DNA from: a virus
UHGV virus genome: UHGV-1570996
Direction: 5' to 3' (one strand)
DNA: 19,300 nt
Shown in pieces: positions 1 through 18,294 of the stretch (positions within the stretch are counted from its first letter, which is position 1; each line of letters starts with the position of its first letter). The notes under the pieces were generated by a model. That model was not told the DNA's origin and searched no databases. It worked only from the letters and a program-made list of their open reading frames with translations. The position numbers were made by a program, and so were the translations under genes.

Positions 1-134
1 CCATGATTTTCATTTTCAAATATTATTAAATAACAATTCCTATTTATAATATCTGTCATTTAATTTGCTCCAGATACAAGGAATCGCCGCAGCATGGCTA
101 CGGTTGGTATTTGTTGCATACCGAAACGGTACGA

Positions 135-163
135 TTGTTGATTTGTACAGTAGGTTTTACGAT
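135..163 (+). promoter_or_regulatory. Candidate sigma70 promoter for mnt (-35 TTGTTG at 135-140, 17-bp spacer, -10 TACGAT at 158-163)
   Basis: Hexamers read directly from sequence; AT-rich region upstream of the mnt start; near-palindrome CCACCCATTTGGTG (172-185) sits between predicted TSS and RBS. Confidence 0.25.
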
Positions 164-191
164 GCCATTCCACCCATTTGGTGAGGCATTG

Positions 192-449
192 ATGATGTAC
201 AGCAAATACGATGAGGCGCAGTTCCACTTGAGGCTTACGCACGAGTTGCACGCTAAGATTAAGCAGCGTGCAAAAATGAATAACAGGTCTATCAATTCCG
301 AAATTGTGGCTACGATGGAAGAATCACTCTCCAAACCATCACCTGTAAGCGGGTATCGTGATGAAGAAGAGAGGCTGGCCTCATTAATCTCGGAACGAGT
401 AAAAGAAGTTGCGGCTGATATCCTTAGAAAAGAAAAAACCCGCGATTAA
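192..449 (+). CDS. mnt: Mnt-like ribbon-helix-helix repressor (homolog of P22 immI Mnt)
   Basis: Translation from ATG 192 (GTGAGG RBS 6 nt upstream) gives about 85 aa; N-terminal strand-helix region FHLRL...NNRSINSEIV matches the Arc/Mnt RHH pattern (recalled P22 Mnt GRSMNSEL); C-terminal SKPSPVSGYRDEEERLA closely matches recalled P22 Mnt SKPSPVTGYRNDAERLA. The ORF-track start at 111 is judged an upstream extension. Confidence 0.7.
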   Translation: MMYSKYDEAQFHLRLTHELHAKIKQRAKMNNRSINSEIVATMEESLSKPSPVSGYRDEEERLASLISERVKEVAADILRKEKTRD

Positions 450-457
450 GCGGGTTT
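436..457. terminator. Bidirectional rho-independent terminator between convergent mnt and the ant operon
   Basis: AAACCCGC-gattaa-GCGGGTTT hairpin; on the minus strand it is followed by TTTTTCTTTTCT, on the plus strand by a weaker T-rich tract; the mnt stop codon lies in the loop. Confidence 0.6.
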
Positions 458-463
458 AGTTGG

Positions 464-685
464 TTAGTTATCAAAAAGTCCGTACGTTTCTTCTTCTTCA
501 GGTGTAAGGGGAAGAATCTCTACTCTATCTATAGATACCTTTTCAATGTACCCATGAGGTCTACTTAAAATTAAAGCTCTCTCATGCCACAGAACTCCAA
601 GAATGTGATACCTTCCAGCATCGCCTTTTACCCTGGCTCTTCCTTTGATTCTTGGCGGCATAATGCCATATTTTTTCTTTGCCAT
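464..685 (-). CDS. Hypothetical 73-aa protein, translationally coupled to the upstream antirepressor gene
   Basis: ORF with ATG at 685-683 overlapping the TAA stop of the upstream gene by one base (TAATG); basic N-terminus, acidic C-terminus; no family recognised. Confidence 0.5.
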   Translation of the reverse strand: MAKKKYGIMPPRIKGRARVKGDAGRYHILGVLWHERALILSRPHGYIEKVSIDRVEILPLTPEEEETYGLFDN

Positions 686-1413
686 TATGCAACATTACTC
701 CCATGAATCAGGTGTTGTAGTGCTTTAACACCTTCCGCATTGTAGCGGAATGCTTCCACCTGTTTGCTGGAATGCGCAGATTTATCCAGGAAGAACTTAC
801 CGTACTGCTCAGTTTTGAGGTTGTTTGCGTTAGCAATGCGACCAATCTTGTTGGCCGTTACTCCAAGCTGCTCTGCAACCTCCCCTGCTGAGTAGTAATG
901 CTCTTCTATTGCTGGAAGAGGTATTGCATTAAAACCAACGATCGGGTTGATTATGCTTGCTGCCGCAGTCTGCTTTGCTTCCGGCGCAAGATTTGGCATC
1001 AAATCGAACAGATTGGTAACAGCTTCAACCGTCATTTTCAATGTTCGCGCCTGGCGATACTCAACAAGTCCACTAGACGATTTACCGCTTTTAATGTGCG
1101 CTTCTTGCATACTTTCAAGTTGGTCTACAAGTGAGCGGCGAACAGCTTTAGATTCACGAGCAGCCACTCGAAGGGCTTGCTTAATTGACATAACAACTTT
1201 TTCAGAAGTTGTCTTGTTTGATTTTTGAACTACGAAAATTTCGTAGTGCTCACCTTCAAGTTCATCCTTAATGCGTGCAATAAAGTCGTTATTGCGGACT
1301 TCTTTTTCCCCGCACTGTCTACGAGCATGATTGACCATCTCTAACAGGTACTGGCTATCAATGGTTTTATCCGTGACAACGGATCCGATGTTTGCTACAT
1401 TCTTAAAAGTCAT
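685..1413 (-). CDS. Antirepressor-family protein, Rha-like N-terminal region with KilA-C-like C-terminal domain (ant2)
   Basis: Start chosen at ATG 1413 (AAGGAA RBS 7-8 nt upstream) rather than the track start 1464; C-terminal YYSAGEVAEQLGVTANKIGRIANANNLKTEQYGKFF resembles the KilA-C/ANT C-terminal domain; N-terminal TIDSQYLLEMVNHARRQCGEKEVRNNDFIARI resembles phage Rha regulatory proteins. Confidence 0.6.
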   Translation of the reverse strand: MTFKNVANIGSVVTDKTIDSQYLLEMVNHARRQCGEKEVRNNDFIARIKDELEGEHYEIFVVQKSNKTTSEKVVMSIKQALRVAARESKAVRRSLVDQLESMQEAHIKSGKSSSGLVEYRQARTLKMTVEAVTNLFDLMPNLAPEAKQTAAASIINPIVGFNAIPLPAIEEHYYSAGEVAEQLGVTANKIGRIANANNLKTEQYGKFFLDKSAHSSKQVEAFRYNAEGVKALQHLIHGSNVA

Positions 1414-1482
1414 TAGGCATTCCTTATGTGGTAGTAAGGGTGTGACATAGGCCGCCAGCAGCACACTGGCGGTTTTCTTTTT
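1408..1482 (+). ncRNA. Candidate sar-like antisense RNA covering the RBS and start codon of ant2
   Basis: Plus-strand -35 GTGACA (1373-1378), 17-bp spacer, extended -10 TGcTACATT (1393-1401), then a plus-oriented hairpin plus T-run at 1451-1482; no plus-strand gene is present here. Confidence 0.3.
1451..1482 (+). terminator. Plus-strand rho-independent terminator in the ant1-ant2 intergenic spacer
   Basis: GCCGCCAG-cagcaca-CTGGCGG stem-loop followed by TTTTCTTTTT on the plus strand; on the minus strand the same hairpin is preceded by an A-tract with no U-tract after it, so it is oriented for plus-strand transcripts. Confidence 0.45.
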
Positions 1483-1501
1483 GCGCCGTCCGGCGCACCA
1501 A

Positions 1502-2128
1502 TCAATGAATCCATTCCTCGCCGCGCAGTTTTGCCAGCATTGGCTGAGCGTTCTTTACGACAAAATTGTTGGTATCAAGATTCTTCATTTCACGAAGAAG
1601 TGATTTCTTGGTTTCTTCTGACATGTAGCGAGTCTCATATGCAATATCGTAAATCCTTCCTGAAAGCTCAGAACCAATTTGCTTCATTCCTGGGTAGATG
1701 TGTTTGCACATTTGTTGACTCTTCTCCATCCACAATTGTAAGTAGCAGAGATTAACCAGTTCTTCGTCAGTAAACTGTTTTGCAATCGGTGAGCATTCTG
1801 CCTGCCGATCCAAAATATCCAGCACCCAGCGGCGGAACTCTTTGGCTACCGGAGTGCGAGCAAACATCGCGATTAGGTGGGCACCGCGTAGTGAGAAAAC
1901 TCGCACTTTTTTGCGATAATTTCCTGAGGTACTCACTTCGAGTACCTGAGTCATTCCGGCGCTAAATTCATCGCTATACTTGTTATAAATCATTGTTACT
2001 GCACGACTATTTGCGTATTTAAGTGCAGATGCAATATTAGATGATGTAAACCAAACACCATGCATATCACGGGTGGGCACCAACTCAACTCCGTGGAAGT
2101 TGTAATCTGATTTTGCTACAATATTCAT
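1502..2128 (-). CDS. Antirepressor-family protein with AntA/BRO-N-like N-terminal domain (ant1)
   Basis: Start chosen at ATG 2128 (AAGGAAA RBS 7 nt upstream), giving about 208 aa beginning MNIVAKSDYNFHGVELVPTRDMHGVWFTSSNIASALKY, typical of the N-terminal domain of phage antirepressors; the track start 2233 would overlap the arc ORF. Confidence 0.6.
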   Translation of the reverse strand: MNIVAKSDYNFHGVELVPTRDMHGVWFTSSNIASALKYANSRAVTMIYNKYSDEFSAGMTQVLEVSTSGNYRKKVRVFSLRGAHLIAMFARTPVAKEFRRWVLDILDRQAECSPIAKQFTDEELVNLCYLQLWMEKSQQMCKHIYPGMKQIGSELSGRIYDIAYETRYMSEETKKSLLREMKNLDTNNFVVKNAQPMLAKLRGEEWIH

Positions 2129-2205
2129 GTTAGTTTCCTTGCATACGGTTACTGACATAGAGGCCCGGTTTGTGTTCGCGCACTGCCGGGCTTCACTATT
2201 TTTAT
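2129..2205 (+). ncRNA. Candidate sar-like antisense RNA complementary to the ant1 RBS and arc-ant1 spacer
   Basis: Plus-strand extended -10 TGcTACAAT (2114-2122) just inside the ant1 start predicts a TSS near 2129; plus-oriented hairpin GCCCGG...CCGGGC (2163-2190) followed by TTCACTATTTTTATT; arrangement parallels P22 sar as recalled. Confidence 0.35.
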
Positions 2206-2375
2206 TGGATGACAACATCGCCCTTTGCCTCAAGTTTCATCAATAACTCCATTCGATAAGCTATCTCTGCCTGAATTGACCTATGGCATCTTTTTGCTGA
2301 TTCGCGGATATGTGAATCAACCTTTTCTGTAAAACGAACCTGACGCGGCTTGATGGAAGATATCTTTTCAGTCAT
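2202..2375 (-). CDS. arc: Arc-like ribbon-helix-helix repressor (57 aa; below the ORF-track size cutoff)
   Basis: Manual translation from ATG 2375 (AGGAG RBS, 6-nt spacing) to TAA 2204-2202: MTEKISSIKPRQVRFTEKVDSHIRESAKRCHRSIQAEIAYRMELLMKLEAKGDVVIQ; strand QVRF then two helices with an RS-x-x-EI motif as in P22 Arc (GRSVNSEI); lies immediately upstream of ant1 as arc does in P22. Confidence 0.65.
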   Translation of the reverse strand: MTEKISSIKPRQVRFTEKVDSHIRESAKRCHRSIQAEIAYRMELLMKLEAKGDVVIQ

Positions 2376-2424
2376 TATGCACTCCTGTTTTTGAAAAACT
2401 CATAATCTCACTTTTTGCAGTTTG

Positions 2425-2453
2425 ATTATTCACTCACACTCAGTATGAGTCAA
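2425..2453 (-). promoter_or_regulatory. Candidate Pant-like promoter with operator repeats in the spacer
   Basis: Minus-strand -35 TTGACT (plus 2453-2448), 17-bp spacer, -10 AATAAT (plus 2430-2425), about 45 nt upstream of arc; spacer holds tandem CACTCA CACTCA plus an inverted TGAGTCA copy (plus 2431-2453), including inverted repeat ACTCA-gta-TGAGT. Confidence 0.4.
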
Positions 2454-2474
2454 TGAATTTTTTATGGTGAACTA

Positions 2475-3116
2475 ATGAATTTTGACGATCAATTCCCATC
2501 AAGAGTATCTCTGGCAAGACAGTCCAGGGGTATGACGCAGGCGCAGTTGTCAAAATTAGCTGGTGTTGTTCAACGTCAAATAGCTGCATACGAGGGTGGT
2601 GAGGCTAAACCACGGCTTCGTGTATTGCAGGCATTAGCCAACGCATTAGGTACTACGGCTGAGTGGTTAGCTCTAGGTGAAGGTCAGGGTCCAGGAACAA
2701 AAAACGTCATGCCTGACGTTCTGGTAAAGCAAATACCAATTCTCAAACTAGATGAAGTTATGCATTACCTAAACACAGGTGAACATTCATCGTCTAGATT
2801 TCATCCGGCAATATACAATGTTGGTGACTCTGCATTTGCATTGACTATTGAAGGTGAAGCTATGACTACAAGTTCAGGTATTAGCTTTCCCAGAGGATCG
2901 GTTGTCACGTTCAGCCCTCTAGTAAAAGCTAAAAGCAAAGATTATGTAATAGCATCATTGGATAAAGAGCAAATATTGAGCTTCAAACAGGTTTACATTG
3001 GTGAAATAGAGACAAACCTAGTATCCCTAAACCCAATGTATCCTAATATTCTTGTTAGAAATGAAGATGTTAGTATTTTGGCAACCGCAGTTTACCTTGA
3101 AATCCCGTTGCTTTGA
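2475..3116 (+). CDS. cI/C2-like repressor: N-terminal HTH (XRE type) and C-terminal LexA/S24-like domain with catalytic Ser apparently replaced by Ala
   Basis: 213-aa ORF with GGTGA RBS; HTH region MTQAQLSKLAGVVQRQIAAYEGGEAKPRLRVLQALANALG; C-terminal EGEAMTTSSGISFPRGSVV aligns with lambda cI EGNSMTAPTGSKPSFPDG (Ser to Ala at the nucleophile), FKQV aligns with cI FKKL, and LNPMYPNI with LNPQYPMI. Confidence 0.8.
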   Translation: MNFDDQFPSRVSLARQSRGMTQAQLSKLAGVVQRQIAAYEGGEAKPRLRVLQALANALGTTAEWLALGEGQGPGTKNVMPDVLVKQIPILKLDEVMHYLNTGEHSSSRFHPAIYNVGDSAFALTIEGEAMTTSSGISFPRGSVVTFSPLVKAKSKDYVIASLDKEQILSFKQVYIGEIETNLVSLNPMYPNILVRNEDVSILATAVYLEIPLL

Positions 3117-3176
3117 TATCCTTTAGGAAGCGACACATTATCATCTGGTATCCTGCTCAAAACTAAGGAGGTTGGT

Positions 3177-3404
3177 GTGAAGCGATGGTTCCTCATAATT
3201 ACTGTTTTCGCGATCATTTACGCTATTTTCCCTGCATTAAAAGCACCAATGCAAATAATTTCACTAGCAATAATTGCAATTGGTGCTTTCATTACAGTAT
3301 CCGTACTTGTGTTTAAGGTTTTAAAGTTTTTAGTTTGGCTATCAAAAGATGATGGATGCAAAGTTCATCAAGAAAAAGAAGGCAAAATAACCAAAGTTGA
3401 CTAA
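3177..3404 (+). CDS. Small 2-TM membrane protein (75 aa) downstream of the repressor gene
   Basis: GTG start at 3177 preceded by AAGGAGG with 6-nt spacing; two hydrophobic helices (FLIITVFAIIYAIF and IISLAIIAIGAFITVSVLVF) and a charged C-terminus; its stop overlaps the stop of convergent gp16. Confidence 0.5.
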   Translation: MKRWFLIITVFAIIYAIFPALKAPMQIISLAIIAIGAFITVSVLVFKVLKFLVWLSKDDGCKVHQEKEGKITKVD

Positions 3405-5524
3405 CTGTCACTAGCGAGCCATGTAATAATCCCAGTGCGAGCAATGGTTTTTGCTTCATCTGTTGATAGGGTTTTCTCCCATCTCTTAAATACCCCAGAT
3501 TGCATCAGTTTCCTTTCTATTGCGCGTCTCACTTCTGCTCTGTCTACTGGTGCGTTTTGCAGGCGAAATAGCATTGATTTAAACTCAGGAGAAGACAGTA
3601 GAGCATCAGCAGCCTTTATCCTGCTTGTTTTCCCTGACATCAATGCGGACGTTATCACCCCTGTTGCACCTACACCAGGAAGACCAGATAAGCTTGTAAC
3701 ACCTTCCGCCGCAGCAGCTTTTGAGGCTATTCCATAAATTTTTGCTAGACTACCCTTTTCCTTCAGAAAGTTATTAACTTGCTGATCCACAAGGCTGCTA
3801 GCATACTGCTTACCAGTATTGAGTCTATTCATAGCCTTGGCTGCTTGATAAATCGTATCAAGGCGCTTTGATGCATCTGTGCCAATAGCATCACGGAGAG
3901 CCTTCATATTGGCCCCATTGCGTGACATTCCGTTATACCATTTTACAAATCCATCAACCCCTAATTGCTGACCTGGTGATTTAGCATAGCTGGTAAATGC
4001 TTTATTCATTGAGGTGAGCGCAACTTCCTGCCGCATATCCTTTGGAATTGACTTCATTAATTGCCTAAAGTCACCACCGTTTCCTTTTGCCATATTAACA
4101 ACGGCACTTTCAACTTTTGGAATTGCTGATTGCTGAAGTTTTCTACCCAAAACGGTTACGGCATCATCTTCAATGGATTTTCGTGTTTTTACCAACTCCT
4201 TACCAAGCGTCCATAACTCCCCTGCGCCATATTTTTCTGCGACAGCCTGTTGGTCATCTGTTATAGCTGCATATAACTTTTTAAGAACACCTGTTTCTTC
4301 ATCCTTGAATGGGCCAGAGCCTTTGCCAATAGCTTGCCCAACCTGCTTTCTAGCGAGATCTAAACGCCCATACGTTGGCAAGGTGTTTGGATCAAGTCGG
4401 TTCAATGTCCGCTTCATTATTGGAGATAATTCATCAATTCCACCTATGTCATCAGCAAAATCCTCTAAAAAATTCAATGTATTGGTTGCCTCAATACGGT
4501 CTCTTACTGGAACCTTTTCGGCAATTTTGTTGTAGATGTTATCTGACTGATTTTGTAATGATGAAATGGTTTTATCAAAATTATCTGCAAGCCTGTCAGA
4601 AACCAGTTGCTTATCAAGGTTTCCCCCAAATGAAGTTATCATTTCATCAGCTTTTCTTCCTAATTCAGTAATAAAGCGCTTATGCGCCTCACTAATCTCT
4701 GTTCCAGGAAGACTTGCCACTGCATTATCAAGAGCCCTGACAGCAGGATTATTAGAGATCATTCCTGGAGTGGCATAATTTTCCAGTTCTAGCTCACGGA
4801 TGGCATTTATCGCGTTAAAATCAGGATTAACTTCATCGGCGAAACCTTGAATAGCTCGTTGCCCGCCAATAAATTTATTATCCATTGCGCCAGCAGCTTT
4901 CTTTAACGTTGCTTTAAATGATTTACTCCCCATCCCTACGGATGAGCGATAAATATCCCCGGCACTATTTTTAATTTTTCCTGCAATCTTCCCAAGCGCT
5001 GGACCAACAATCTCGGCTACAGGGCCAGCCACAGCGCCAATAGCAGCGCCGGAAGCAACATCGCTATTTGTTCCATTGGCTACAATAGCCCCTTCTCCAG
5101 CACCAAGCCCTGCGGCGGCAGCCAGCCTTGCCGCCCCTTTCGGAACCTGAGAAATAATCCCACCACCACTAACAAATGGCGCGGCTTGTCCAACAAACTC
5201 ACCAACATCTTGTGCGGTTGATGGTTTTGCCGCTAACTTCTGCTGTAGAGACTGAATTGCGGCTTGCTCTTCTGGTGTCATATCCTGAAACAGGCCAACA
5301 CCTTTACCAACATCCATCAATCCACTGAGAACGCCATACATAAAACGGTCGAAGCCGTTAGCATTATTAACAACATTTTCCTGTCTGGAATTTTCCTCTG
5401 GTGAAACCAAAGGAGATTGCTGCTGTTCTGGTTGGGCATCAAGCACAAAGCCATCAGGAAGCTGTGAGTTATCAGGCTGATTATCGAGAACAAAGCCTTC
5501 GGGTAAACCTACATCGGTTGCCAT
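3401..5524 (-). CDS. gp16-like ejection (internal virion) protein, N-terminally extended with a short tandem repeat
   Basis: 707-aa ORF at the position of P22 gene 16 (last gene of the morphogenesis operon after gp20); Ala/Gly-rich low-complexity segments; N-terminus carries [12 protein letters not shown] / [12 protein letters not shown] repeat. Confidence 0.65.
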
Positions 5525-17694: not shown

Positions 17695-18183
17695 TTAATA
17701 GCCATCAGAAGTAATCGCTACAGATTTCAATCCCTCAATGTCATCCTTGGACAGGGCGAACCATTCACCGTGCTTTCTCTTTGCGGCAAATTTGCGATGA
17801 AGCATGTTTTCAGTTTCTCTTCCACCAGGGATCAGGCACTCAAGCTTCAAGCAGTCTGGTCCAGAGTTGCCAAGCGATTTGATGCGTTGTGGAATGTTGG
17901 ATGAATACCCAATTTTGGTTAGCCCAGTTTTCTTCGATGACAAAACGTATACCTGAGGAGGTTCTTTTCTCTGGTCTTCCATTACACGTCTCATTGTTGC
18001 CATAAGTCCGCCGTGCATCAGCATTTCAACAAAGAACGCTGACCGAACACCTGACGACTTAAGCATGCCAGAAAATTCACTTGCCAATTCCATTAACTCT
18101 GCGATGTTTTCAGGAACTTTTTGGCAGTTATCTTCCTTGTATAAGGAAATCATTCTTTGAAGCTTTTCTTCTAATTGGTTCAT
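17695..18183 (-). CDS. T5orf172 (GIY-YIG-like) domain protein, stand-alone accessory gene
   Basis: Start chosen at ATG 18183, 162 aa; C-terminal half VYVLSSKKTGLTKIGYSSNIPQRIKSLGNSGPDCLKLECLIPGGRETENMLHRKFAAKRKHGEWFALS fits the T5orf172 pattern (YV..KIG..R...L....E..LH..F...GEWF); flanked by 347-bp and 327-bp non-coding regions; visibly more AT-rich than neighbours. Confidence 0.7.
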   Translation of the reverse strand: MNQLEEKLQRMISLYKEDNCQKVPENIAELMELASEFSGMLKSSGVRSAFFVEMLMHGGLMATMRRVMEDQRKEPPQVYVLSSKKTGLTKIGYSSNIPQRIKSLGNSGPDCLKLECLIPGGRETENMLHRKFAAKRKHGEWFALSKDDIEGLKSVAITSDGY

Positions 18184-18294
18184 AGCGTCTTTACCTTTTA
18201 GAAAGTGAGCCTGTCTCACAGAAAAGCCGCCCCGAGATGGTCGCCACCATATACGGCAGTTCTCAGGCTCAACTTTCTGAAAGGCTCGGGTGAT

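Follow-up and report, generated by a model that had tools for sequence, protein, structure and literature searches.

The region analyzed here lies in a stretch of 19,300 nucleotides that we refer to as the window, and it represents the "ant moron" of an E. coli prophage that is P22-like (Lederbergvirus). The genes that flank the block are ejection and structural genes of the P22 type. From the ejection-protein gene toward the tailspike side, a gene for a cI-like repressor is divergent from an arc-like gene (arc57), which is followed by two antirepressor-class genes (ant1 and ant2), a small reading frame (orf73), a terminator, and a homolog of mnt that is convergent with the preceding operon. 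An ORF check placed every reading frame named in a preliminary description of this DNA where it had been reported, and all ORFs of the block are intact in the window. The gene order, with mnt at the far end and convergent with the ant operon, also agrees with the earlier view that the layout is unlike the immI region of P22.

The gene order is not new; it is already present in the sequenced phage JEP4 and in a prophage of E. coli HS. Because the block is conserved at 95 to 99% in JEP4 (95% identity) and in 21 of 5,426 complete E. coli genomes, a chance origin is ruled out. For the regulatory core, identity reaches at least 99% across 28 genomes, and a Leclercia prophage has the same gene order with proteins that are 37 to 52% identical. 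More broadly, each of the 14 distinct related loci had the cI-like gene divergent from an arc57 homolog and an ant gene. These loci represent eight named genera (Salmonella, Klebsiella, Yersinia, Leclercia, Tatumella, Providencia, Xenorhabdus, and Morganella), a metagenome contig, and an unclassified genome from the Enterobacterales. Of 13 loci, 11 had 97 to 100 bp between the cI-like gene and arc57, and the remaining two had 90 bp. Matches resembling Mnt were found in the fetched flanks of 3 of the 14 loci; the cI-like gene is thus paired with arc57 and an ant gene irrespective of a nearby mnt. The layout is a recurring variant of a classic phage immunity circuit. Figure 3 of Villafane et al. 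2008 (PMC2629481) covers E. coli HS and has a gray triangle for an IS3, and we infer that the HS locus is the HS-1 of the "ant moron" comparison in that paper, whose HS-1 moron is described there as having no recognizable arc and hence a control of ant unlike that of P22.

The first gene of the ant operon, arc57 (2202 to 2375, minus strand), is preceded by a strong Shine-Dalgarno sequence (AGGAG) and encodes a ribbon-helix-helix protein of 57 amino acids. When a profile built from 12 family members was compared to one of Arc/Mnt, hhalign gave an in-register alignment (probability, 86%; E, 5e-6), whereas BLASTP found no similarity between the product and P22 Arc, and its score against Pfam Arc (16.0 bits) was under the cut-off of 20.4. 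The AlphaFold monomer is a single long helix, and a fold search with this model returned no match. The next gene, ant1 (1502 to 2128, minus strand), encodes an antirepressor-family protein with Bro-N (41.4 bits) and P22_AR_C (52.7 bits) domains, each over its cut-off. It matched phrog_245, "anti-repressor Ant" (2e-53), it shares 29% identity with P22 Ant in its C-terminal part, and the gene is 94% nucleotide-identical to one in phage SPN3UB that RefSeq names "anti-repressor Ant." As had been proposed, the second antirepressor-class gene is of a different kind. The product of ant2 (685 to 1413, minus strand) is modular, with a conserved C-terminal domain and an N-terminal domain, and it falls in the Bro/Rha "antirepressor-like" class; in homologs, the same C-terminal domain is fused to pRha or Bro-N. 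Since ant2 matched phrog_1726, "anti-repressor" (2.4e-100), and no model in Pfam or NCBIfam, its antirepressor label comes from database annotation. The last gene, orf73 (464 to 685, minus strand), encodes a small basic/acidic protein of 73 amino acids. As read from the sequence, it overlaps the ant2 stop codon as TAATG, which would couple its translation to that of ant2, in line with the earlier account. It belongs to phrog_4977, a family of unknown function; a homology search recovered close homologs only, and its AlphaFold model is poor (mean pLDDT, 63.7). Furthermore, the gene is optional in relatives, with no gene annotated at its position in phiKp_30 and in the Leclercia locus L010.

Upstream of arc57 is a predicted sigma-70 promoter, Pant (TTGACT-17-AATAAT; 2425 to 2453, minus strand), which agrees with the consensus at 10 of 12 positions and is the best promoter-like site in positions 1 to 3600. 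Its -35 element, TTGAC, is invariant and in the same position in 13 loci. Half-sites of the form ACTCA/TGAGT, at 2398, 2432, 2438, and 2446, flank and overlap the core of Pant and define a candidate operator region (2398 to 2453). Across 11 diverged intergenic regions, which are related sequences and not independent, there were 25 copies of this motif compared to 2.0 +/- 1.4 in shuffled sequence (maximum of 8 in 2,000 shuffles), an enrichment of about 12-fold, with recurring offsets from the -35 of Pant. The arrangement ACTCAT-N41-ATGAGTCAA occurs once in the window, and no clear dyad was resolved in the operator region near Pant. A weak candidate promoter for the cI-like gene may lie at 2422 to 2449 (TTGATT-16-TATGAG, plus strand); we infer this site from a reading of the sequence and a comparison with the P22 annotation, and a consensus scan made no call there. 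If correct, the two promoters would sit back to back, each with its -35 over the -10 of the other, like Pant and Pmnt of P22.

The gene divergent from arc57 (2475 to 3116, plus strand) encodes, as originally suggested, a cI-type protein with an XRE-type helix-turn-helix and an S24-like domain, for which HTH_3 (48.4 bits) and Peptidase_S24 (47.9 bits) both exceeded the Pfam cut-offs. Alignments to lambda cI and to the C2 repressor of JEP4 revealed that the catalytic serine of the S24 domain is an alanine (GEAM) while the lysine is kept, a loss that the preliminary description had overlooked. In the same alignments, the Ala-Gly site is absent, with LDE in its place. Among 22 homologs, the helix-turn-helix is almost invariant. 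Most homologs retain the Ser-Lys pair, so the family may keep some proteolytic activity elsewhere, and a second clade has lost both residues.

These features bear on whether the locus could be triggered by the SOS response, like the antirepressor switches of Gifsy phages or of coliphage 186 (Tum). In that case, DNA damage would relieve repression of the ant operon, either by way of LexA or because the cI-like protein cleaves itself, and the prophage would be induced by Ant1 and Ant2. Antirepressors of Gifsy phages are controlled by LexA (Lemire et al. 2011, as cited in PMC7067206), an S24 domain is present in the repressor, most of the distant homologs keep the serine and lysine, and one copy carries the RefSeq name "LexA family transcriptional regulator." Yet RecA-type self-cleavage is unlikely because the serine is an alanine and there is no Ala-Gly site, a condition shared by the closest relatives. 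In addition to the clade that lacks both residues, there is no LexA box in the window, and JEP4 already has a normal, cleavable-looking C2 repressor in immC. We consider such a switch highly improbable.

Downstream of the cI-like gene, orf75 (3177 to 3404, plus strand) encodes a predicted small membrane protein of 75 amino acids that matched phrog_7294, a family of unknown function. It is possible in principle that the cI-like protein chiefly regulates this cargo as part of an exclusion or defense module, and that its adjacency to ant is incidental. The gene is read in the same direction as that of the cI-like protein and has a strong Shine-Dalgarno sequence, P22 has sieA at the equivalent place, and the helix-turn-helix resembles those of the defense-system regulators RmrA and CapH (PADLOC), although these matches span the generic helix-turn-helix only. 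The pairing with arc57 and ant, at fixed spacing in every locus, makes this quite unlikely, as does the variability of the orf75 slot between phages: the match to JEP4 stops at 3182, EC.P3 and E212 have the orf75 segment at 97% identity, and JEP4, E. coli HS, and the Leclercia and Salmonella loci have a different gene, or none, at this place. Given also a promoter-like site of its own (3113 to 3141), orf75 is probably outside the regulatory cassette.

Two antisense-RNA units, at about 2129 to 2206 and about 1408 to 1485, had escaped the preliminary description. The first, sar1 (2114 to 2206, plus strand), is a sar-type antisense RNA gene directed against ant1 and is identified by its fold, its conservation, and a covariance model. 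Its promoter has an extended -10 element (TGCTACAAT, 2114 to 2122) within the first codons of ant1, and the RNA (about 2129 to 2206) forms two hairpins, would pair with the ribosome-binding site of ant1, to which it is complementary, and ends in a run of T that overlaps the arc57 stop codon. The fold is stable (dG, -33.3 kcal/mol; z = -5.9) and has the same two-hairpin shape as P22 sar, with which it shares sequence blocks. The unit is kept in each cassette locus examined, and 7 of the 12 pairs in the terminator stem are changed on both sides among loci. When a covariance model was built without the window or JEP4, it matched positions 2129 to 2206 (40.2 bits; E, 6.8e-7) as the sole significant match in 19.3 kb, and it found nothing at sar2.

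The candidate second unit, sar2 (1373 to 1485, plus strand), is probably an antisense RNA against ant2, as judged from promoter- and terminator-like sites called on the plus strand. The promoter (GTGACA-17-TACATT with an upstream TG) is at 1373 to 1401, and a hairpin at 1449 to 1475 precedes a run of T. The predicted RNA (about 1408 to 1485) would cover the start codon and ribosome-binding site of ant2. The box TTTGCTACAxT occurs twice, at 1391 and at 2112. Folded as a single sequence, the unit scores weakly (z = -2.15). The hairpin recurs upstream of ant2 homologs, where both partners differ in 6 of its 13 pairs.

At the other end of the block, the mnt homolog (192 to 449, plus strand) encodes 85 amino acids comprising a ribbon-helix-helix domain and a C-terminal region resembling that of Mnt. 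The product shares 47% identity with P22 Mnt across 73 residues, C-terminal region included, and it matched Pfam Arc (54.6 bits; cut-off, 20.4) and phrog_795 (6.5e-33). JEP4 annotates the gene as "regulatory protein mnt," and translation most likely begins at the ATG at 192, in agreement with the JEP4 annotation, and not at the TTG at 111. Upstream, the perfect palindrome TACCGAAACGGTA (119 to 131) is a candidate Mnt operator that abuts the -35 of a candidate mnt promoter (TTGTTG-17-TACGAT; 135 to 163, plus strand). The palindrome lines up with the mnt operator of P22 and, in ST64T, with the palindrome AAGACCACGGTGGTCTT; its arms, TACC and GGTA, are present in JEP4, VSe13, and Sf101, and the right arm only is retained in L010. 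The promoter, which we read from the sequence and which a consensus scan did not call, aligns with TTGTGG-17-TATGAT of ST64T, TTGTGG-17-TAAGAT of L010, and our own reading of the Pmnt annotated in NC_002371 for P22 (TTGAGA-17-TATCAT). By alignment, then, the sequence upstream of mnt can be matched column by column to the mnt operator and promoter of P22 and ST64T, with which it is homologous. The ant operon ends in a predicted intrinsic terminator (436 to 457, minus strand), an 8-pair stem with 5 G-C pairs and the tail TTTTTCTTTTCT. It had been described as bidirectional, which is only partly borne out because the scan called it on the minus strand only; on the plus strand, the hairpin directly follows the mnt stop codon with a tail that is merely TTTAGTT.

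On the tailspike side, positions 47 to 104 are a conserved boundary sequence (93 to 100% identity in many P22-like phages) that is annotated in CUS-3 as "bsq1 boundary sequence." Within it is the relic start codon of a P22-type tailspike gene (CAT at 57 to 59, reading MTDI...), which is the tailspike start in VSe13 but opens merely a 21-codon ORF in JEP4. In ST64T and Sf101, mnt is alone between gene 16 and the tailspike gene; in VSe13, it adjoins the tailspike gene; in all three, the two genes are divergent.

Taken together, our results are best explained by two independent modules that lie side by side, a reading to which we assign a probability of roughly 0.6. Module A (about 47 to 457) matches the mnt-only arrangement of ST64T and Sf101, and we read it as a relic of a P22/ST64T-type immI from which arc and ant, formerly between mnt and the tailspike gene, would have been lost. 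In this module, mnt has its own candidate promoter and, beside the -35, a palindromic operator, facing the tailspike side. Mnt would most likely regulate its own expression, and it may additionally repress matching operators of incoming relatives. Module B (about 464 to 3116) would be a complete and portable alternative immI cassette that keeps the arc, sar, and ant features of P22, with a cI-fold repressor in the position of keeper instead of Mnt. Specifically, the strong Pant would drive arc57-ant1-ant2-orf73, and the cI-like repressor, made from its weak promoter, would bind the ACTCA-type sites and hold the ant operon off in the lysogen, the job that Mnt has in P22; lacking the catalytic serine and the Ala-Gly site, it should stay uncut in an SOS response. 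As the earliest product of Pant, arc57 would close the promoter again after infection, like Arc in P22. Late transcription would have to traverse the cassette en route to the tailspike gene, which we propose is the reason that translation of each ant gene is also blocked by a separate antisense RNA encoded in cis (sar1 and, probably, sar2). Both Ant1 and Ant2 presumably bind and inactivate repressors of the C2/cI type.

The preliminary description had instead suggested a rewired circuit whose control could not be deduced by analogy with P22. This was too pessimistic, since comparison separates the two modules. A single integrated circuit would have Mnt, the cI-like protein, and arc57 jointly set antirepressor levels, with the distal Mnt also acting on the cassette, for example on Pant, the sar promoters, or terminator read-through. 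P22 Mnt is the maintenance repressor of Pant (P22 annotation; Villafane et al. 2008, PMC2629481), mnt is beside the cassette in both E. coli and Leclercia despite the divergence of their proteins, and two Providencia loci have Mnt-like matches at most 3 kb from the cassette. However, the sole perfect copy of TACCGAAACGGTA in the window is upstream of mnt, with none in the Pant region (2376 to 2474). Moreover, most cassette loci have no nearby mnt, and ST64T, Sf101, and VSe13 have mnt by the tailspike gene without the cassette. Integration of this kind seems unlikely to us, and a relic beside an alternative immI cassette is the better reading because the region upstream of mnt is homologous to that of P22 and ST64T and the pairing of the cI-like gene, arc57, and ant is independent of mnt.

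An argument can also be made that mosaic recombination has left a decaying remnant without a working circuit. According to Villafane et al. 2008 (PMC2629481), the ant moron is in rapid flux and contains many degraded genes, IS3 has inserted within ant2 of E. coli HS, and the tailspike start at 57 to 59 is a relic. We regard this as very unlikely for a locus whose ORFs are all intact, whose regulatory core is nearly invariant among the 28 genomes, and whose cassette is conserved in the eight named genera with compensatory changes in its RNA stems. Furthermore, JEP4, which is a near-identical phage, propagates as an isolate.

The window holds the late region of a P22-like (Lederbergvirus) phage on its minus strand, with the Rz spanin gene followed by the terminase, the head genes, and the ejection proteins. 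A variable block lies between the gene 16 homologue (3401-5524, -) and the tailspike side, which is the slot occupied by immI in P22. P22 immI is a textbook circuit, where Mnt, Arc, and the antisense RNA sar control Ant, and it has influenced thinking on ribbon-helix-helix repressors, promoter overlap, and control by antisense RNA. The preliminary description of the window proposed a rewired version of this circuit at 111-3404. Our results agree that the region differs from P22. They do not favor rewiring, in the sense of Mnt and Arc having been placed onto new promoters. Rather, the block is best read as a relic mnt module (about 47-457) that sits beside a self-contained, alternative immI cassette (about 464-3116). 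In this cassette, a gene for a cI-like protein is divergent from an operon in which the promoter Pant (2425-2453, -) precedes arc57 (a 57-aa arc-like gene), two antirepressor-class genes (ant1 and ant2), and a coupled 73-aa ORF (orf73). All of the ORFs originally listed were present in our ORF check.

The layout, which had been presented as unlike that of canonical P22 immI, is real but already represented among sequenced genomes. The block occurs in identical order and at 95.4% nucleotide identity in the near-identical phage JEP4 (MT740315). At least 80% of it is found in 21 of 5,426 complete E. coli genomes, and the regulatory core (2129-3116) is present at ≥99% identity in 28 E. coli genomes. 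The same order occurs in a prophage locus of Leclercia (L010), where gene 16 is followed by a small ORF, a cI-like gene divergent from a 57-aa gene, ant1, ant2, mnt, and the tailspike gene. Because the proteins of this locus are only 37-52% identical to those of the window, the arrangement is conserved and is no accident of one genome. Among 50,697 phage records, the cI-like protein is encoded only by JEP4 and a Providencia phage. In E. coli HS, the block has 95% nucleotide identity and an unchanged order, with an IS3 element within ant2; the gene that follows the cI-like gene is a different one. We take this locus to be HS-1 of Villafane et al. (2008, PMC2629481), matched through its accession and through the legend of their Figure 3 on "ant morons," which takes in E. 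coli HS and marks IS3 with a gray triangle. In the available text of that paper, HS-1 and CUS-3 are said to seem to lack arc, such that control of ant must differ from P22; the same text describes no arc gene, sar RNA, or cI-like repressor for HS-1. Our literature search returned no functional study of the block, and the JEP4 paper contains no regulatory work. The gene order was thus on record before, both in databases and, in the case of the E. coli HS prophage, in print, while the logic of the cassette is uncharacterized.

The mnt homologue (192-449, +) is 47% identical to P22 Mnt across residues 7-79 (73 residues), including SKPSPVxGYR and the helix that follows. It has an Arc-type ribbon-helix-helix N-terminal domain (Pfam Arc 54.6 bits; cut-off 20.4) and a C-terminal region that resembles the tetramerization region of Mnt. 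A start at the TTG at 111, as first suggested, is unlikely, given that JEP4 annotates the ATG at 192, after a GGTGAGG Shine-Dalgarno sequence. In P22, a Mnt-family repressor is divergent from Pant and its operator covers the Pant start. In the window, by contrast, mnt is about 2 kb from Pant, convergent with the operon and past its terminator hairpin (436-457), which our scan calls on the minus strand only, and it has a candidate operator of its own. This setting is reminiscent of the "mnt-only" phages ST64T, ST104, and Sf101, in which mnt is likewise divergent from the tailspike gene and a palindromic operator abuts the -35 of the mnt promoter. In ST64T and Sf101, mnt is the sole gene between gene 16 and the tailspike gene, and in VSe13 it adjoins the tailspike gene. 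The difference is that the mnt-only phages have nothing or one unknown gene between gene 16 and mnt, where the window has the whole cassette. The available text of Villafane et al. (PMC2629481) describes the ST64T type of ant moron as mnt plus one gene of unknown function only.

The control region of mnt can be followed at the nucleotide level. The 130 bp upstream of the gene align column by column to the corresponding region of ST64T and to the annotated mnt operator and promoter of P22. The P22 palindrome GGTCCACCGTGGACC is accompanied by the promoter TTGAGA-17-TATCAT (hexamers by our own reading of the promoter annotated in NC_002371), and the ST64T palindrome AGACCACGGTGGTCT by TTGTGG-17-TATGAT. 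The window has a candidate operator palindrome, TACCGAAACGGTA (119-131), and a candidate promoter, TTGTTG-17-TACGAT (135-163). The TACC/GGTA arms of the palindrome are retained in JEP4, VSe13, and Sf101, and the right arm alone in the Leclercia locus. The operator center differs between the window (TACCGAAACGGTA) and ST64T (GACCACGGTGGTC), which fits with altered strand-contact residues in Mnt, predicted to be QFHLRL in the window and HFNFRM in P22. Another palindrome, GGTATTTGTTGCATACC (105-121), was considered as the Mnt operator and rejected, as it is not conserved in JEP4 or VSe13. In the entire 19.3 kb, TACCGAAACGGTA has one perfect copy, at 119-131, and the same whole-window search recovered no perfect copy of a Mnt-type palindrome near Pant. 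We infer that the targets of this Mnt are local, namely the mnt promoter itself and perhaps a decayed promoter that reads into the tailspike gene, along with operators of the matching type on incoming phages, and that mnt is not wired into the cassette. The neighboring sequence at 47-104 is the conserved tailspike boundary, known as "bsq1" in CUS-3. It keeps the Shine-Dalgarno sequence and the MTDI... start (57-59, -) of a P22-type tailspike head-binding domain. In both the window and JEP4, this start opens merely a short, dead ORF, and the real tailspike gene of JEP4 begins about 130 bp further on, past the left end of the window. The relic start looks like the footprint of a tailspike-module swap.

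A plausible candidate for the repressor of Pant is the product of the divergent cI-like gene (2475-3116, +). Using the cI-like protein as query together with an alignment of 22 homologues, we identified 14 distinct loci from Salmonella, Klebsiella, Yersinia, Leclercia, Tatumella, Providencia, Xenorhabdus, Morganella, one unclassified Enterobacterales genome, and one metagenome contig. In all 14, the cI-like gene is divergent from an ORF of 56-67 aa. Next to this ORF comes an antirepressor gene, either of the P22 Ant type or of the ant1 type, or else a pair of the ant1 and ant2 types. Across the 13 loci that could be aligned, the distance between the two start codons is 97-100 bp in 11 loci and 90 bp in the remaining two, and the -35 element of Pant (TTGAC) is invariant in position. 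In the window, Pant (TTGACT-17-AATAAT) is the top promoter-like site of the region in a consensus scan. A weak plus-strand candidate, TTGATT-16-TATGAG, which the same scan does not call, stands back to back with it, such that each -35 lies over the -10 of the other. This predicted geometry is that annotated for Pant and Pmnt in P22.

The intergenic regions also contain candidate binding sites. In 11 diverged intergenic regions, we counted 25 copies of the pentamer ACTCA/TGAGT, compared with 2.0 ± 1.4 in shuffled sequences. The copies recur at set positions that cover the -35, lie close to the -10, or come downstream of the start. A search for exact inverted repeats across these regions yielded no consistent dyad, and the solid result is the enrichment of the half-site alone. 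Among proteins with 37-99% overall identity, there is almost no variation in the helix-turn-helix of the cI-like protein (GVVQRQIAAYEGGEAKPR). In a Providencia/Morganella clade, the recognition region reads GVSQRQ...G(H/R)E and the repeated motif is ACTTCAT, which at the sequence level is a small piece of covariation. Based on the near-invariant helix-turn-helix, the enrichment of the pentamer, and this covariation, we assign the ACTCA sites to the cI-like protein and infer that it is the maintenance repressor of Pant.

The cI-like protein does not appear to be an ordinary SOS-responsive repressor. Its N-terminal helix-turn-helix (HTH_3, 48.4 bits) and C-terminal S24 domain (Peptidase_S24, 47.9 bits) both exceed the Pfam cut-offs, and its closest solved relative is the C-terminal domain of lambda cI; NCBIfam and PADLOC searches gave generic helix-turn-helix matches alone and nothing specific. 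The general-base lysine (lambda Lys192) is in place, with SFKQV aligned to TFKKL of lambda. The catalytic serine (lambda Ser149, G-x-S-M) is replaced, with EGEAM in the window versus EGNSM in lambda and KGDSM in the C2 repressor of JEP4. The Ala-Gly or Cys-Gly linker site is missing as well, with LKLDEVM versus SWVSAGCW in JEP4 C2, and only one of 22 homologues has Ala-Gly at that position. These features are not peculiar to one sequence: the protein is 100% identical in JEP4, 28 E. coli genomes carry its DNA at ≥99% identity, and the serine-to-alanine change is shared by its closest relatives. Most of the distant homologues have the Ser-Lys pair and lack Ala-Gly. Judged from these residues, the cI-like repressor is probably not cleavable. 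The main immC repressor of JEP4, C2, has the serine, the lysine, and the Ala-Gly site, and looks self-cleavable. Furthermore, there is no LexA box in the window. Taken together, the loss of the serine and linker site in the cI-like protein, the apparently cleavable C2, and the lack of a LexA box make an SOS-triggered antirepressor switch unlikely. The results also correct existing annotations: JEP4 lists the cI-like gene as "repressor protein C2," and a RefSeq copy of it is labeled "LexA family." When homologues of 2475-3116 from three other loci (L020, L021, and L027) were compared, the S24 catalytic residues were found to have been lost at least twice in the family. In the clade of the window the change is Ser to Ala, and the Providencia/Morganella clade independently has Ser to Ala together with Lys to Arg. 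In many other members, both residues are intact and the protein has a coiled-coil-like C-terminal extension of about 50-70 aa, which is absent in the window protein.

In P22, a strong Pant is followed by a small ribbon-helix-helix gene and then by the antirepressor gene, and the window has the same order with arc57 (2202-2375, -) as the first cistron. The relationship between arc57 and P22 Arc is distant. The arc57 protein has no likeness to Arc that BLASTP can detect, and it falls below the gathering score of Pfam Arc PF03869 (16.0 bits, E 0.011; cut-off 20.4) and below the cut-off for ParD_like (19.8 bits; cut-off 23). A profile of 12 arc57 members nevertheless aligns in register with the Arc/Mnt profile (hhalign probability 86%, E 5e-6), matching the strand (RQVRF versus QFNLRW) and the RS-x-Q/N-x-EI turn. 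Structural searches were less informative. The AlphaFold monomer (pLDDT 83) is one long helix over residues 17-50, and the ribbon-helix-helix fold forms only as a dimer; a Foldseek search of this monomer against the PDB gave no match, and a PDB sequence search returned AmrZ alone, at E 0.8. By position and predicted family membership, arc57 is the counterpart of Arc.

The feature list in the preliminary description missed the predicted antisense RNAs. In P22, an antisense RNA of about 70 nt begins immediately past the start codon of ant and extends to the stop codon of arc. In the window, a predicted plus-strand extended -10 promoter, TGCTACAAT (2114-2122), lies within the first codons of ant1. 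The candidate RNA, sar1, would start at about 2129 and is predicted to fold into two hairpins (dG -33.3 kcal/mol; z = -5.9), with a 3' run of T that overlaps the arc57 stop codon. It has the same start relative to ant as P22 sar, the same two-hairpin shape, and shared blocks (GUUxGUUU, UUACUGACA, and GCCC...GGGCUUCA), and it is complementary to the ribosome-binding site of ant1. The element is found in every cassette locus examined and in Salmonella phage SPN3UB, and 7 of the 12 pairs in its terminator stem have changed on both sides. When P22, SPN3UB, and nine cassette loci were used to train a covariance model, with the window and JEP4 left out, the model gave a single significant match in the window, at 2129-2206 (40.2 bits, E 6.8e-7). 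The Rfam sar model RF00262, which scores P22 itself at 97.8 bits and has a gathering threshold of 43 bits, gave no match at E ≤ 1 in 1-3600. A permissive Rfam scan of the same interval had symR at 2126-2197 as its sole match, which we rejected as an identity for the element (21.8 versus 61 bits). A further 43 E. coli genomes share with the window the sar segment alone (2129-2208, 95-99% identity), which in them is linked to other genes that bear the annotation "Arc family DNA-binding protein." The sar and ant 5'-end segment seems to be a recombination joint between differing arc and ant modules.

A second antisense RNA, sar2, is probable ahead of ant2, with support that is weaker than for sar1. 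The TTTGCTACAxT box of sar1 recurs at 1391, along with a promoter-like site (GTGACA-17-TACATT with an upstream TG) and a plus-strand hairpin followed by a run of T (1449-1484). A conserved form of this hairpin precedes ant2 homologues, and both partners have changed in 6 of its 13 pairs. The single-sequence fold has z = -2.15, and the sar1 covariance model has no match at this site. A need for such RNAs would follow from the position of the cassette. Antiterminated late transcription would have to cross it to reach the tailspike gene, and repressors that act on promoters could not stop this transcription, so each ant gene would need a block at translation. The underlying, established P22 biology reportedly comes from the papers by Susskind and McClure on sar, which PMC2629481 cites.

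Ant1 (1502-2128, -) has in common with P22 Ant only the C-terminal domain (29% identity; P22_AR_C 52.7 bits) and carries Bro-N instead of P22_AR_N, while other copies of the cassette encode true P22_AR_N Ant proteins. Ant2 (685-1413, -) is assigned to PHROG 1726, "anti-repressor" (2e-100), and has no Pfam or NCBIfam match, no BLASTP similarity to P22 Ant, and nothing meaningful in a PDB sequence search. Calling both proteins antirepressors thus follows PHROG names and is an annotation-level assignment; JEP4 annotates the two genes as "Rha" and "KilA." The C-terminal half of Ant2 (about residues 110-242) is strongly conserved without a Pfam model and may merit a domain family of its own. Comparison of the window gene (685-1413) with its counterparts in L010 (3234-3938), L020 (3247-4002), and L027 (396-1151) revealed this half joined to three N-terminal types (unassigned, pRha, and Bro-N), which by sequence is domain shuffling typical of the protein class. 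The last gene of the operon, orf73 (464-685, -), has a start that overlaps the ant2 stop (TAATG). It has close homologues only, a low-confidence AlphaFold model (pLDDT 63.7), and no gene annotated at the equivalent position in phiKp_30 or L010.

The ant1 gene is 94% identical at the nucleotide level to a gene that RefSeq names "anti-repressor Ant" in SPN3UB. We considered this phage as the source of the whole operon and rejected it, as the two have only ant1 in common; the arc gene of SPN3UB, the genes after it, and the Mnt-type regulator are either unrelated or distant. Instead, the 94% identity next to unrelated arc and downstream genes indicates that ant1 moves between immI-like modules of different phage types. 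SPN3UB is a lambdoid siphovirus, and its arrangement is canonical, with the Mnt-type regulator divergent from arc and ant, inside the tail gene cluster (L004, 2400-4900).

Relative to P22, whose Mnt has a homologue in the window, the alternative cassette appears to keep the arc-sar-ant core and to place a cI-fold, probably noncleavable repressor where Mnt would be. Further differences are the additional antirepressor-class gene ant2, the probable antisense RNA sar2, and the coupled orf73. Other systems offer analogies. Like the window, the immI regions of P1 and P7 (c4, icd, and ant1/ant2) appear to gate an antirepressor with a cis-encoded antisense RNA and have two Ant products, a likeness in layout for which no sequence relationship is expected. 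In P1, a single gene gives both ant1 and ant2 as nested, in-frame products, its transcript is also processed to yield c4, and we know of no divergent protein repressor. The LexA-controlled antirepressors of Gifsy prophages and Tum of coliphage 186 are encoded apart from the main immunity region and act on a cI-type repressor (see in part PMC7067206). The window genes may be analogous in both respects, but they have no LexA box, and their local repressor is phage encoded and without the catalytic serine.

These properties raise the possibility that the cassette is a portable, "public" immunity module. With a near-invariant helix-turn-helix from E. coli to Xenorhabdus and the same ACTCA sites at every Pant, a single resident copy would keep the antirepressor operon silent in each cassette-bearing phage that enters, whatever its Ant. 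This would be the opposite of ordinary immunity repressors, which diversify. The variable and often catalytically dead S24-like domain could then serve as a sensor or interaction surface (for a ligand, a partner protein, or Ant) that times the release of the antirepressor. The outcome would be a trigger for prophage cross-induction that is independent of SOS and double-locked by one antisense RNA per ant gene. We give this reading as a whole a chance of roughly one in four.

Our analysis points to a second, widely spread version of the P22 immI circuit in nature. Such a cassette can hold two distinct antirepressors, with probably one antisense RNA for each, and databases carry no annotation of these RNA genes. 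If the proposed wiring holds, the cassette would be a compact natural case of a swap in repressor type at an unchanged promoter architecture, and a candidate way for Enterobacterales prophages that share a host to influence one another independently of SOS. It would also be a ready experimental system, as both JEP4 and the E. coli HS prophage are available.

The orf75 gene (3177-3404, +) encodes a hydrophobic, predicted 75-aa membrane protein with two spans. Its GTG start is served by a strong Shine-Dalgarno sequence (AAGGAGG), and the gene has a promoter-like site to itself (3113-3141). The gene is 97% identical in phages EC.P3 and E212; the JEP4 match stops at 3182, and E. coli HS has a different gene in this slot. 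Since the slot is the position of sieA in P22, orf75 may be an exclusion-type cargo gene. Its coding sequence contains a 29-nt imperfect inverted repeat (3232-3297; 76% complementary, with 8 nt between the arms). Finally, a 174-aa ORF (17695-18219, -; phrog_4284) lies between the genes for the Rz spanin and the small terminase. The corresponding slot of JEP4 holds a "Rha protein" (JEP4_60), and the ORF may be another Rha-class regulator gene outside the ant moron.
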